Assembly: GCA_964566185.1 (NCBI GenBank)
Contig: CAZMHS010000004.1
Span: forward strand, 1-53,450
Length of the DNA: 53,450 bases
Source: an uncultured Alphaproteobacteria bacterium
GTDB taxonomy: Bacteria > Pseudomonadota > Alphaproteobacteria > UBA3830 > CAYLKK01
Direction: 5' to 3'
The number at the start of each line of letters is the position of its first letter. Positions within the stretch are counted from its first letter, which is position 1. The notes beneath the pieces were generated by a model that was given only the letters and a program-made list of their open reading frames with translations, had not been told where the DNA came from and ran no database searches. The translations under genes and the position numbers were made by a program. Positions 12,944-16,733 of the stretch are shown one piece after another.

Positions 12944-13019
12944 TGGCGTCCCTAACGAGATTCGAACTCGTGTTGCCGCCGTGAAAGGGCGGTGTCCTAG
13001 GCCTCTAGACGATAGGGAC
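12944..13019 (-). tRNA. tRNA-Glu (anticodon UUC), CCA encoded
   Basis: The reverse complement reads GTCCCTATCGTCTAGAGGCCTAGGACACCGCCCTTTCACGGCGGCAACACGAGTTCGAATCTCGTTAGGGACGCCA. Hand-folded, it gives a 7-bp acceptor stem, anticodon stem CCGCC/GGCGG with loop CTTTCAC, and T arm ACGAG-TTCGAAT-CTCGT. Confidence 0.93.
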
Positions 13020-13033
13020 TCGAAAACGGCTAC

Positions 13034-13063
13034 AGTGTATCATCGTTACTTGTTAGATGTCAA
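13034..13063 (-). promoter_or_regulatory. Putative sigma70-type promoter for tRNA-Glu (and possibly ssb)
   Basis: On the minus strand: TTGACA (13063-13058), 18 nt spacer, TACACT (13039-13034). The -10 ends 14 nt before the tRNA 5' end. Confidence 0.5.
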
Positions 13064-13120: not shown

Positions 13121-14530
13121 TTATTTCACTGTTGCCTCCATATACACTATTTTTTTTAAGCATTTTACAGTGTTTAAATTCTTTAACTTTATGCGTATTT
13201 TCGTCGGAATGCTAACTAGGTGAGACTTTAGTTCTTGTATATCTTTAAAGTTCACGTGTCTAGTTGAATCTATTTGAAAACTTGGAGGATTTTCTACAGA
13301 TATGTCTTCAATGATGTTACTTGTTGTATCTCTACAATCTTTTGTTTCATATTTTATGTTTGGCAATTTAATGTTTTGTAAACACGTTGATATTTTTAGT
13401 TTTACGAACCTCTGATCTCCTGTCATTTTAATCGTTGTTTGGACAACCTTACCGATGATGTATTTATCTTTATTTTGTATACGTACAGTGTCGTCGACAG
13501 TGATGTTATATAATTTTTCGAATTTTCCGCATATTTCAATTTTCGTATTTCTTTGTTTCGCAAGCATGTGGTTGAATGCGCGTCTTGCGACAGATTGTAC
13601 GACTTTTTCTCCGCTTTTACTTTCGAAAAAACTGCTATTACTTTTGCTGATTGTTAACTCGTTTAGCTTTATGTAAATATTTTTTTCTGTACCATTGTTT
13701 GACGTGTGATTGTTGAGTGTGAAGTTTAGAGTTTCCTCTATTTTCTGTCTATAATGCCAATGCAAATCAAAAATACCATCAAACCAAAATCTTTTTAATT
13801 TAACTGGTTCTTTGTTTACATTAAAGCTGCAAGAATGAGGTAAGTTACTTGGATATGCTCTTTTTATTTTAAACATTCCTATGCTGTAACAGCTTTTTGG
13901 TAATGATCTGGATAATTGCCACCATTGATTTTTTAGATTATTTAGTGAATTGACACGTTTTTCTGGAAACAAATTCGCTATAATCTGAAATACGTCAATC
14001 ATGCCACTTCGTTCTTGGATCCATTGCGCTGTTACATGCATATTTACTTTTGATAGAGGTTCATTCATCTTCTTGATTGAACTTGACCAGTAATCTTCCA
14101 TGCGTATGTCGTGTTTATATTCAGCATCAACGATATTAGATAATTTTACATCACCTGATGTTCTCGAAAAAAAGAATCTTGCAGGATACTCTTCTGTCAC
14201 ATCATTCATATTGCCATTAGCTAGTTCTTTGCTGTAATTCTTTGATGCGCAAAAATCTGATGCTATTTTTTGTATTTGTTCTTTTTTGAAATGCGATATA
14301 ACCCTAACGACAGTGAACATGCTACTTGTACGAGATGGTGTTTCGTGTATCTCTCCTTTTAGTAGAATGTTGTTGCCGTACATGATAGTAGCCTCCTGGA
14401 GGCCGTCTGTGTTAAAATCGCTTTTGAGCATGACAGTTGCTGTTGCTAGCTCTCCTTCTTTTTGTGAAATTTCCAACTGAAATATTTCGTGGCAATCGCT
14501 TCTGCCTGGTGTTCTTAAATAAACGGACAT
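13121..14530 (-). CDS. Hypothetical protein (470 aa) immediately downstream of the terminase gene; no family recognised
   Basis: A long ORF in a dense coding context. I prefer the internal ATG at 14530 (MSVYLRTPGRS...) because AGGAG lies 7 nt upstream and it starts 22 nt after the terminase stop. The track's longer 516-aa form (start 14671) would overlap the terminase gene by 119 nt. Confidence 0.6.
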   Translation of the reverse strand: MSVYLRTPGRSDCHEIFQLEISQKEGELATATVMLKSDFNTDGLQEATIMYGNNILLKGEIHETPSRTSSMFTVVRVISHFKKEQIQKIASDFCASKNYSKELANGNMNDVTEEYPARFFFSRTSGDVKLSNIVDAEYKHDIRMEDYWSSSIKKMNEPLSKVNMHVTAQWIQERSGMIDVFQIIANLFPEKRVNSLNNLKNQWWQLSRSLPKSCYSIGMFKIKRAYPSNLPHSCSFNVNKEPVKLKRFWFDGIFDLHWHYRQKIEETLNFTLNNHTSNNGTEKNIYIKLNELTISKSNSSFFESKSGEKVVQSVARRAFNHMLAKQRNTKIEICGKFEKLYNITVDDTVRIQNKDKYIIGKVVQTTIKMTGDQRFVKLKISTCLQNIKLPNIKYETKDCRDTTSNIIEDISVENPPSFQIDSTRHVNFKDIQELKSHLVSIPTKIRIKLKNLNTVKCLKKIVYMEATVK

Positions 14531-14552
14531 ATTTTTTCTCCTATTTTTACTG

Positions 14553-15824
14553 TTATATTTCAATATTCCATATATTGGTGCTTTTTTTCTTTGATTTATC
14601 AAGCATAAGATCTCTAAGACCCCATACAAGTGCGTCAACTCTATCAGGTGATTTCTTTTTTTCTTTTCCAAATGATATCATTTGCATTTCGAGAGTTCTA
14701 AACTGTCGAATATGAAATATTTTTTTCTTTGTATACAAATTGTAGATTGGAACTGCTCTTGCTCTTTTTGAAGATGTTGCTCTGACGCTTTTTATTTTCA
14801 TATTCGGATTTATTTTTTGTAATAAAGATTTTACTACGTCACCTCCTTGATTGTTTTCAAAAACCACGTACTCAGCATTGTATTTTTCGTAAGCCAATGC
14901 TATGGTTTTAGCCCATTCATCTGGTGGCGCATGCGTAGATAGGTCCTCTATTACGTACGCATCATGCATCTCGTCTATTGCGCATACAATAATGCCAGTT
15001 TCATCGTGAACTTTTGATGAACTAACAGACGGATCTACGGCTATTATAATTTTTTCAAAATCGAAATTTGTCGTTTTATATGAATTGCTTATATCATCAA
15101 ATGTCCATAATCCGTTTTCATTGTCATCAATGATTTCTCCGAAAATTTCTTGTGCTTCGATTGCTGTTCCTTTCATGTATTCTAATTGTTGCATGAAATT
15201 TTTTGATAGATTATTTTTGTTTTCTAACGTAGTTCCTCTGGTTAAAAAAACATCTTGCTGTTTCGTTAAATCCTTAAGAAATTTTATTGGCCTTGGTGTT
15301 GTCGTGATAATAATTCTTGGATTTTCGCCTAATCGCAATGCAAGATTCAGTTGGTCAAATAACGCTTTTGGATTAGAGAACTTTGCTATTTCATCTATCC
15401 AAGCGAAGTCGAATTGCGGCCCCCTTAATTGGTCGTAATGTTCGCCACTATAAATATTTGCGATAGCTCCATTCGGCCAAAGTAGTTGCTGCTTTGTTTT
15501 TAGGTACTTAATATTGTCTTCTATTCTTGCGCTTGACAATATACCGCTTTCTCCTTCTAGCATAACGCTTTGTGCTTCTTTTTGTGATGCGCCGATAAGC
15601 GCAATTCTTTTATATCGATTTTCTCTTACAAGTTGAAGTACTGCTTCTGCTGCAGCTCTTGTTTTGCCAAATCCTCTTCCGGCCATGATAAGCCATATAT
15701 TCCAATTTCCTGACGGCATTTTCTGATTATCTCTAGCTAGCTCATTCCACGTTGGAGTCGTGCTCGCTACTCTGCTCTGGTACTCTGAACGCAGCACCGT
15801 CAGGAGCTCTTCCCTTGTTAACAT
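14553..15824 (-). CDS. Phage/GTA-type terminase large subunit (TerL)
   Basis: Walker A WLIMAGRGFGKTRAAAEAV and Walker B FAWIDEIAKF, in the pattern I associate with RcGTA g2-like terminases. The C-terminal RNaseH-like nuclease region carries acidic residues (IIIAVDPS..., VVFENNQGGD, SPDRVDALVWGL). AGGAG lies 9 nt upstream of the ATG. Confidence 0.82.
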   Translation of the reverse strand: MLTREELLTVLRSEYQSRVASTTPTWNELARDNQKMPSGNWNIWLIMAGRGFGKTRAAAEAVLQLVRENRYKRIALIGASQKEAQSVMLEGESGILSSARIEDNIKYLKTKQQLLWPNGAIANIYSGEHYDQLRGPQFDFAWIDEIAKFSNPKALFDQLNLALRLGENPRIIITTTPRPIKFLKDLTKQQDVFLTRGTTLENKNNLSKNFMQQLEYMKGTAIEAQEIFGEIIDDNENGLWTFDDISNSYKTTNFDFEKIIIAVDPSVSSSKVHDETGIIVCAIDEMHDAYVIEDLSTHAPPDEWAKTIALAYEKYNAEYVVFENNQGGDVVKSLLQKINPNMKIKSVRATSSKRARAVPIYNLYTKKKIFHIRQFRTLEMQMISFGKEKKKSPDRVDALVWGLRDLMLDKSKKKSTNIWNIEI

Positions 15825-15876
15825 AATGGAGGTCTCCTAAAAAAGTATGTAAATGATTATTGTAATGAATGGCTAC

Positions 15877-15906
15877 ATTATACTATTCTATAGTGGTGTA
15901 TGTCAA
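15877..15906 (-). promoter_or_regulatory. Near-consensus sigma70 promoter driving the terminase operon
   Basis: On the minus strand: TTGACA (15906-15901), 18 nt spacer, TATAAT (15882-15877), about 50 nt upstream of the terminase ATG. Confidence 0.55.
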
Positions 15907-15992: not shown

Positions 15993-16733
15993 ATGTCTAA
16001 TCTTGCAGATAAAACAGCGCTCATTACTGGAGCAAGTGGTGCGATTGGAAGAGCTATTGTCGCATCATTGTATAATGCTGGAGCTCATCTGATAATTACT
16101 GGTACGAATGTAGATCGTTTGACGGAGGTTTGTAATTCTTATAAGGATAGATGTAATCTTATCAAATGTGATTTTAACAATCATGAGCAAGTTGGAAATT
16201 TAGTACAAAACATTGAAAATCAGTTTTGTAAGAAGGTCGATATACTTGTTAACAATGCTGGTACGACTGACGATTGTCTTCTAATGCGTATGAGTGATGA
16301 GTCTTGGAAAAATGTAATCGATATTAACTTAACTGCAACTTTTAAGCTAATGCAAGCCTGTATTCGTGGTATGATAAAGTCAAAATGGGGTAGAATAATT
16401 AATATTTCGTCTATCGTTGCATTTACTGGAAATCCAGGCCAAGCAAACTATTGCGCATCTAAAGCTGGGATGATAGGATTGTCCAAAAGCGTTGCAATGG
16501 AGGTTGCTAGGCGTGGGATTACTGTAAATTGCGTTGCTCCTGGCATGATAGCGTCAGCTATGATAGATAAGCTGCCTGAAGATGCTCAGCAAAAAATGTT
16601 ATCTAGTATTCCTGTTGGAAGAGTTGGTGTACCTGAAGATGTGGCGAATTGTGTGTCGTTTTTAGCCTCAAAAGAGTCATCATTTATTACAGGGCATGTT
16701 TTACATGTTAATGGAGGTATGGCAATGCTGTAA
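15993..16733 (+). CDS. fabG: 3-oxoacyl-[ACP] reductase FabG
   Basis: SDR motifs TGASGAIGRAI, NNAG and YCASKAG (YxxxK). Located in a fabG-acpP-fabF context. Confidence 0.92.
   Translation: MSNLADKTALITGASGAIGRAIVASLYNAGAHLIITGTNVDRLTEVCNSYKDRCNLIKCDFNNHEQVGNLVQNIENQFCKKVDILVNNAGTTDDCLLMRMSDESWKNVIDINLTATFKLMQACIRGMIKSKWGRIINISSIVAFTGNPGQANYCASKAGMIGLSKSVAMEVARRGITVNCVAPGMIASAMIDKLPEDAQQKMLSSIPVGRVGVPEDVANCVSFLASKESSFITGHVLHVNGGMAML

Follow-up and report, generated by a model that had tools for sequence, protein, structure and literature searches.

Gene transfer agents (GTAs) reduced to clusters of head genes have been described from Holosporaceae endosymbionts (George et al. 2022, Genome Biol Evol 14:evac099, PMC9254644). 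In these genomes, the gene for the large terminase subunit (TerL) is detached from the cluster, and the unknown genes past the adaptor were suggested to be genes that "may be tail genes". The ratio of nonsynonymous to synonymous substitution rates (dN/dS) reported for Holosporaceae was 0.02–0.1, and the function was left open. On the subject of GTAs, a 2025 review of Holosporales merely cites that study, and the GTA particles of Holosporales have until now been described as heads without tails. Here, we describe a detached terL and the gene directly downstream of it in the genome of an uncultured alphaproteobacterium. The window, that is, the whole stretch of DNA analyzed (53,450 nt), is the entire contig C4 (CAZMHS010000004.1) of a draft assembly (GCA_964566185.1, hereafter G000) of 868,754 bp in 25 contigs, with about 36% G+C and 99% completeness. 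We conclude that terL very probably encodes the DNA-packaging motor and nuclease of a domesticated particle that is inherited vertically and belongs to the lineage of the Rhodobacter capsulatus GTA (RcGTA), here in its Holosporales-type form with the partner genes scattered over the genome. An intact, selected, and detached TerL is published biology, and at this locus a known system is arranged in a new way. The novelty that an earlier note on this DNA had implied for the detachment was thus anticipated by the work on Holosporaceae.

The product of terL (positions 14553–15824, minus strand) is a protein of 423 aa in which Pfam, PHROG, and motif analysis delineated an N-terminal packaging ATPase and a C-terminal RNaseH-like nuclease. 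It contained the segments MAGRGFGKTRAAAEAV and FAWIDEIAKF. The protein matched Pfam Terminase_6N (PF03237) with an E-value of 1.1e-26 and 94.2 bits (cut-off 22) and Terminase_6C (PF17289) with an E-value of 2.4e-16 and 60.6 bits (cut-off 22.6), and it was also matched by PHROG families of terminase large subunits (up to 3e-35). In an alignment of 15 homologues, Walker A (AGRGFGKT), Walker B (FDxAWxDE), and the acidic residues of the nuclease (D264, D274/E275, and D394/D397) were invariant. By sequence, the 423-aa protein is a bona fide intact large terminase with both domains. The earlier note had read it as an intact TerL from its Walker motifs and nuclease region and had proposed a profile search against terminase families; the search, with both Pfam domains above their curated cut-offs, bore this reading out.

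The distribution of TerL was assessed by whole-genome search of 41 relatives representing five families and 14 genera, with genomes of 0.5–1.5 Mb. TerL was detected in 37 of them, always as a single copy, and could be read without an internal stop in 35. Its closest named relatives came from metagenome-assembled genomes (MAGs) of Holosporaceae/Holosporales and from Finniella, Odyssella, Caedimonas, and Gromoviella, and the "Rickettsiales-type" label used in the earlier note is therefore not supported. On the maximum-likelihood tree, the TerL of the window was placed inside a clade of 26 Holosporales-type sequences with 100/100 support. The family groupings were recovered within this clade, and no phage TerL fell inside it. 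A specific grouping with the TerLs of canonical GTAs was not obtained, as the tree gave no resolution outside the Holosporales clade. TerLs related to that of the window were also carried by four MAG contigs labeled Verrucomicrobiales, Thiotrichales, Terriglobia, and Bacteroidetes (L032, L033, L061, and L067). The three of these that were in the tree (L032, L033, and L061) fell inside the Holosporales-type clade; the non-alphaproteobacterial labels of all four are probably the result of binning contamination or mislabeling.

We estimated selection by comparison with a relative of identical synteny that is 96% identical (L151). terL had a dN/dS of 0.090 and the gene downstream of it one of 0.079; values for the neighboring fabG, acpP, and fabF were 0.075, 0.062, and 0.104, respectively. 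No integrase or replication module was located alongside. As far as these comparisons of sequences go, inheritance is vertical and under purifying selection. The proposal that this TerL has been retained by selection was therefore well founded, given a dN/dS of 0.09 like that of the fab genes and acpP and an intact reading frame in most relatives.

Genes for a particle head were found on another contig of the same genome, C10. They run in one direction, have no internal stops, and encode a portal (Pfam PF04860, 1e-71), an S78-type prohead protease (Peptidase_S78, 1e-30), an HK97-type capsid protein (3e-68), and a head–tail connector, or adaptor, matching TIGR02215 and PF05135. Downstream of the connector, there are open reading frames (ORFs) of 103, 130, and 169 aa (o103, o130, and o169). 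The best match of the portal among solved structures was RcGTA Rcc01684 (2.4e-69), with the next phage portal at 1e-17; the best match of the capsid protein was RcGTA Rcc01687 (1e-50). Alignment of the adaptor to g6 from four full clusters of canonical GTAs gave an hhalign probability of 99.9%. On the strength of these structure and adaptor matches, the C10 head belongs to the RcGTA lineage. Capsid homologues were present in 54 of the 58 genomes of the order.

The earlier note had described the terminase as an orphan and had suggested that the genome be scanned for portal, protease, and HK97 capsid genes. All three are intact on C10, as is the adaptor, so the terminase is no orphan, and "packaging for a dispersed GTA", one of the functions considered for it, agrees with what the sequence of the genome suggests. 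The particle genes of G000 are spread over C10, C4, and a third contig, C1, and no contiguous head–tail cluster with the RcGTA tail genes g9 and g11–g15 was present in this genome. With its head cluster on C10, its singlet TerL on C4, and a size of 0.87 Mb, the genome matches the reduced GTA of the Holosporaceae type. Directly upstream of the portal gene on C10, we noted a gene for a 140-aa Cro/C1-type regulator (HTH_3, Pfam 5e-11; L004:4068–4490, plus strand), part of which matched the helix-turn-helix region of the NCBIfam model for Wmk of Wolbachia phage WO (2.4e-13, far below the cut-off). Homologues of this gene lie upstream of the portal gene in G045 (L140:658–1158) and near the cluster in L047, and this protein is a candidate for controlling the particle genes.

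The gene downstream of terL (positions 13121–14530, minus strand) begins 22 nt past the terL stop codon in the same orientation. The ORF called mechanically was 516 aa long and started from a TTG; the conserved start is the ATG at 14530, which has an AGGAG 7 nt upstream, corresponds to a methionine (M1) invariant among the homologues, and yields a protein of 469 aa. This protein had no match in Pfam, NCBIfam, or PHROG. No portal signature was found in it with the same three databases, as expected from the earlier description of the downstream gene as not portal-like. A search of PDB sequences with the profile of the family came back empty. Homologues numbered six by word-indexed search and 576 cluster representatives by exhaustive profile search.

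Structure prediction yielded an assignment. An AlphaFold2 model built from seven sequences had a predicted local distance difference test score (pLDDT) of 74.5. When it was compared to the PDB with Foldseek, the top matches were Mu gp44, the MuSo2 43-kDa tail protein, spikes of extracellular contractile injection systems and Photorhabdus virulence cassettes, VgrG, and T4 gp27 (best E-value 6e-9, probability 1.0, 51 matches at E ≤ 1e-3). TM-scores normalized by target length reached 0.55, with Mu gp44-type hubs leading. Against BFVD, 325 matches were obtained at E ≤ 1e-3; the best was an unnamed viral protein (3e-20), and the named matches lower in the list were siphovirus tail proteins. By its predicted fold and its synteny, described below, the 469-aa protein is a divergent tail-tip hub of the gp27/Mu gp44 type. 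The view that the downstream gene is an unknown unrelated to heads and tails is thereby overturned, the more so because in relatives the gene sits in the GTA cluster. The statement that no other head or tail genes lie near terL stands for genes recognizable by sequence and fails for the downstream gene, which is a tail gene by predicted fold.

Membership of the protein in a curated hub family such as Phage_GPD was not found by sequence. When 60 members of the hub family were scanned, the carbohydrate-binding module CBM_5_12 was the sole Pfam domain shared by two or more members, accompanied by weak matches to unnamed PHROG families. The module is inserted in 18 of the 60 homologues and absent from the hub of G000, which at 469 aa is shorter than the 560–650 aa seen elsewhere. 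As the G000 hub lacks this insertion, a putative adhesion domain would have been lost in this lineage. We also considered whether the hub could be a diverged g13 of RcGTA. Comparison by hhalign with the g13 alignment (TIGR02218) and with all families of the four canonical GTA clusters was negative; the adaptor, serving as a control, scored 99.9% in the same kind of comparison. We therefore did not call the hub g13. TIGR02218 had no match in G000.

The position of the hub gene was assessed across the order, in which hub homologues were present in 55 of the 58 genomes. In many of these, the hub lies about 3–7 kb downstream of the capsid gene on the same strand. We clustered the ORFs of fourteen fetched loci, twelve of which, from four families, carry the hub. 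The gene order in these twelve loci was portal, protease, capsid, adaptor, o103, an o130-like ORF, an ORF of about 53 aa in some loci, and o169, followed in most by an EamA transporter gene in antisense orientation and then by the hub (560–650 aa), a protein of about 300 aa (F7), a cell-wall hydrolase of about 140 aa (Hydrolase_2, Pfam 1e-16), and a protein of 110–180 aa (F9). The hub was found within the GTA cluster past o169 in all twelve and before the hydrolase in most. Given this position across the order, the hub belongs to the GTA-like particle. The EamA-family transporter gene encodes about 300 aa and, in most of the relatives whose clusters were fetched (L137–L150), lies on the opposite strand, separating o169 from the hub; its G000 orthologue is located at C3:23875–24795, apart from both particle loci.

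The remaining proteins of the cluster yielded assignments to varying degrees. The model of o169 (pLDDT 82.7) matched tail-tube, distal-tail, and terminator proteins in Foldseek, including the RcGTA neck entry 6TOA, and o169 is thus predicted to have a tail-tube-type fold. Of the profiles compared to PDB sequences, that of o103 gave the sole hint, a weak match to 2KZ4, a "putative head-tail adaptor" (E-value 0.0055), and those of o130, o169, and F7 gave none. Searches of Pfam and PHROG with F7 were empty. One protein at the F9 position reads as hydrophobic by eye.

In the family to which the window belongs, the main cluster stops after o169, and the hub is located elsewhere. It directly follows terL in L151 and probably also in L154, where the ORF upstream of it is partial. 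The same adjacency was observed in a distant MAG, "Alphaproteobacteria bacterium 40-19" (L036), and in the MAG L047 the hub directly follows the capsid gene. In several genera, terL lies 3–13 kb from the hub on the same strand. A universal adjacency of terL and the hub was rejected: the homologues P0004 and P0006 are not beside terL, and G001 has terL and the hub on separate contigs. Judged from these gene orders, the hub has in this genus been relocated from the main cluster to the terL operon, and this operon is a local rearrangement.

Profile hidden Markov models (HMMs) run on the six-frame translation of G000 recovered o103, o130, o169, and the hub, along with a divergent F7 at C1:117492–118352 on the minus strand (E-value 2e-12). 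The hydrolase, the F9 membrane protein, and the families F16 and F12 were not found by this search. Across the order, the hydrolase and F7 were each present in 51 of the 58 genomes; the hydrolase was absent from all three genomes of the window's family and from a second family (f5). No gene of tape-measure size was present. Single in-frame stops within otherwise full-length matches were seen in a few relatives, in terL (G024 and G037, the two genomes in which TerL carries an internal stop), the hub (G021 and G042), and F7 (G024, G027, G009, and G034). Such stops may reflect errors in sequencing, genuine pseudogenes, or programmed events.

Reading the letters of the window directly, we located a consensus sigma-70 promoter sequence, TTGACA-18 nt-TATAAT, at 15877–15906 on the minus strand; the earlier note had called it near-perfect, and the site is in fact a perfect match. 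The −10 hexamer ends 52 nt ahead of the terL ATG, and a Shine–Dalgarno sequence AGGAG (15834–15838, minus strand) lies 9 nt 5′ of this start codon. The site is the sole 12/12 match in the 53-kb window, compared to 0.11 in shuffled sequences, and one of six perfect TTGACA-N16–19-TATAAT sites in all 869 kb of G000. In L151, the −35 hexamer is unchanged, the −10 hexamer is TACAAT, and the spacer has diverged by several changes. These features suggest that the site acts as the promoter of terL. Four of the other perfect sites precede rpsD (C1:12365), a gene for a DedA-like membrane protein (C8), an EamA-like gene (C16), and a dapB-like gene (C20); one, at C1:92508, has no ORF directly downstream. 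Inspection by eye of the regions upstream of terL, portal, and F7 revealed no common promoter motif.

The AGGAG of the hub gene (14538–14542, minus strand) sits in the 22-nt gap after the terL stop, and terL and the hub gene, as their sequence indicates, therefore form a two-gene operon. On its upstream side, this operon is flanked by the divergent genes fabG-acpP-fabF, with fabG at 15993–16733 on the plus strand. The gap between fabG and terL is 168 nt, as had been stated earlier, and this space is indeed too small for a small terminase gene. Beyond the hub gene lie a tRNA-Glu gene, ssb, and gyrA. The gene for tRNA-Glu(UUC) is directly 3′ of the hub gene (12944–13019, minus strand) and has a promoter-like site of its own, TTGACA-18 nt-TACACT (13034–13063, minus strand).

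From the identities of these genes, their predicted folds, their conservation, and the selection acting on them, we infer how the particle would be made. C10 would supply the portal, prohead protease, HK97 capsid, adaptor, two small neck-sized proteins, and the tube-fold protein; C4 would supply TerL and the tail-tip hub, and C1 the divergent copy of the approximately 300-aa F7. The terL-hub operon would be transcribed from the consensus sigma-70 promoter. TerL would then dock onto the portal of proheads built from the C10 genes, pump in DNA by ATP hydrolysis, and cut it with the RNaseH-type nuclease domain. The portal would then be sealed by a stub tail that has no tape measure and is made up of the neck proteins, a ring of the tube-fold protein, and a trimeric hub. 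That both ATPase and nuclease are intact speaks for DNA as the packaged cargo. As a tube-fold protein, a gp27-like hub, and a hydrolase are conserved, the particle, on the predicted folds, is probably more than a bare capsid, namely a machine with a short tail that can dock and penetrate.

Several observations weigh against assigning TerL to a domesticated particle of the RcGTA lineage. Beyond the Holosporales clade, the TerLs of canonical GTAs and phages were interleaved without support, and the best phage TerL is 43% identical to that of the window. The hub, o103, o130, o169, and F7 had no sequence or profile similarity to canonical RcGTA g7–g14, and the tail assignments were derived from predicted folds, with TM-scores of 0.3–0.55, and from synteny. 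A small terminase was not identified; there is no room for one upstream of terL, and no search was aimed at one. This family lacks both the cell-wall hydrolase and the membrane protein of the cluster, which leaves release by lysis without an explanation here. Finally, no particles were seen in more than 850 endosymbiont cells (PMC9254644).

Some of these points could be taken as signs of decay, with terL and its neighbor being functionless leftovers of a prophage or GTA on the way to loss. Such a history would account for particle genes scattered over several contigs, the absence of TIGR02218 and other canonical tail genes, the loss of the hydrolase and membrane-protein genes in this family, and the in-frame stops in terL, hub, or F7 of a few relatives. 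However, all the particle genes of G000 are intact, every catalytic motif is invariant, the dN/dS of 0.08–0.09 is that of the adjacent essential fab genes, and terL and the hub were retained in 37 of 41 and 55 of 58 relatives despite genomes of 0.7–1.5 Mb. Decay is thus strongly disfavored by the sequences, and we consider it highly improbable. We give even less credence to the idea that a scattered type VI secretion system (T6SS) uses the 469-aa protein as a second spike or hub resembling VgrG, and that its gene came to lie beside terL by chance. VgrG structures do occur among the fold matches of the hub, the genome has a canonical VgrG gene (C1:109932–111407, plus strand; TIGR03361, 4e-164), the F7 homologue lies about 6 kb from it, and no Hcp recognizable by Pfam (T6SS_HCP) was found anywhere in the genome. 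Yet TIGR03361 matched the C1 gene only, the 469-aa protein had no NCBIfam match, and its top fold matches were Mu gp44-type hubs and siphovirus tail proteins rather than VgrG. In the twelve fetched clusters from four families, the hub lies between the tube-fold protein and F7, and in three further lineages it directly follows terL or capsid; this order-wide position inside the GTA cluster led us to reject the T6SS origin.

A different matter is what the particle is used for. The capsid, TerL, and hub could have been exapted, that is, kept for something other than gene transfer between bacteria, such as delivery of DNA or protein to the host, a storage compartment, or a TerL-dependent role in DNA processing. 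In G000, terL and the hub stand behind one of just six perfect consensus promoters, the hydrolase of the cluster has been lost in this family, and the tail tip is not of the RcGTA type. Expression of RcGTA is tightly restricted. An altered use would fit the strong consensus promoter and the lost hydrolase. An exapted role was proposed for the GTAs of endosymbionts by George et al. (2022; PMC9254644), and an obligate intracellular lifestyle, small clonal populations, and the lack of particles in transmission electron microscopy (PMC9254644) speak in its favor. Conversely, DNA packaging depends on the very parts that are intact here, namely the ATPase and nuclease motifs, the portal, the protease, and the capsid, and the sequence gives no pointer to another cargo. 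Exaptation bears on how the particle is used and leaves the identity of its genes untouched; it overlaps with the assignment of TerL to a domesticated RcGTA-lineage particle and is not needed to explain the data, and we regard it as unlikely, although clearly less so than decay or a T6SS origin.

Within the assignment to the RcGTA lineage, we offer one further proposal tentatively, as a possibility about which we have more doubt than confidence. The "tail-less" GTAs of Holosporales may be complete chimeric machines with stub tails, combining a head of the RcGTA lineage with a tip of non-RcGTA type, and may have become rewired and constitutive in the family of the window. The tip may consist of a ring of the tube-fold protein, the gp27-like hub, the distal protein of about 300 aa, and the pair of hydrolase and membrane protein, with no tape measure, and the pair may serve lysis or penetration. 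In this family, the hub may be co-transcribed with terL from a promoter of housekeeping-gene strength, the hydrolase and membrane protein having been lost. If this were true, particle production would be constitutive, and the particles would leave the cell or be put to use without lysis of the phage type, perhaps directed at the host cell. The hub and the tail tip narrow the question of what endosymbiont GTAs are for, gene transfer or interaction with the host. The tail-tip proteins are concrete targets for cryo-electron tomography or proteomics, and the terL-hub operon and the hydrolase loss provide a natural variant that can be compared with relatives keeping the full cluster.

Three known systems were compared with the locus. 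The 469-aa protein shares its predicted fold with the gp27, Mu gp44, and P2 gpD hubs and the N-terminal domains of siphophage Tal proteins (PDB 1WRU, 3CDD, 9KI1, and 1K28), and in relatives its gene adjoins that of the tube-fold protein, usually with just the antisense EamA gene between them. Unlike these hubs, it belongs to no Pfam, NCBIfam, or PHROG hub family, its gene is part of a GTA-like head cluster and not of the baseplate of a contractile tail, and the G000 copy is shortened and devoid of CBM_5_12. With RcGTA (g1–g15; Bardy et al. 2020, PDB 6TBA/6TB9/6TOA), G000 shares a portal and capsid whose best structure matches are those of RcGTA, an adaptor homologous to g6, a TerL of the same Terminase_6 type as g2, and vertical inheritance on the chromosome. 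It differs in lacking the contiguous 15-kb cluster and detectable homologues of g9, g11, g12, g13, g14, and g15, in a tail tip built from a different hub family, and in having no gene of tape-measure size.

The clusters described by George et al. (2022) are the closest counterpart. Here as there, a block of RcGTA-like portal, protease, capsid, and adaptor genes is found in a highly reduced symbiont genome, TerL lies away from the main cluster, RcGTA tail genes are undetectable, and purifying selection is strong. In contrast to those clusters, a tube-fold protein, a gp27-like hub, a Hydrolase_2 protein, and a membrane protein were recognized here by folds and synteny; the hub, tube-fold protein, and hydrolase, taken as a cryptic tail tip of non-RcGTA type, appear to be new relative to that study and to the 2025 review. 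Also distinct are the loss of the hydrolase in this family and, in this genus, the placement of the hub in the terL operon.

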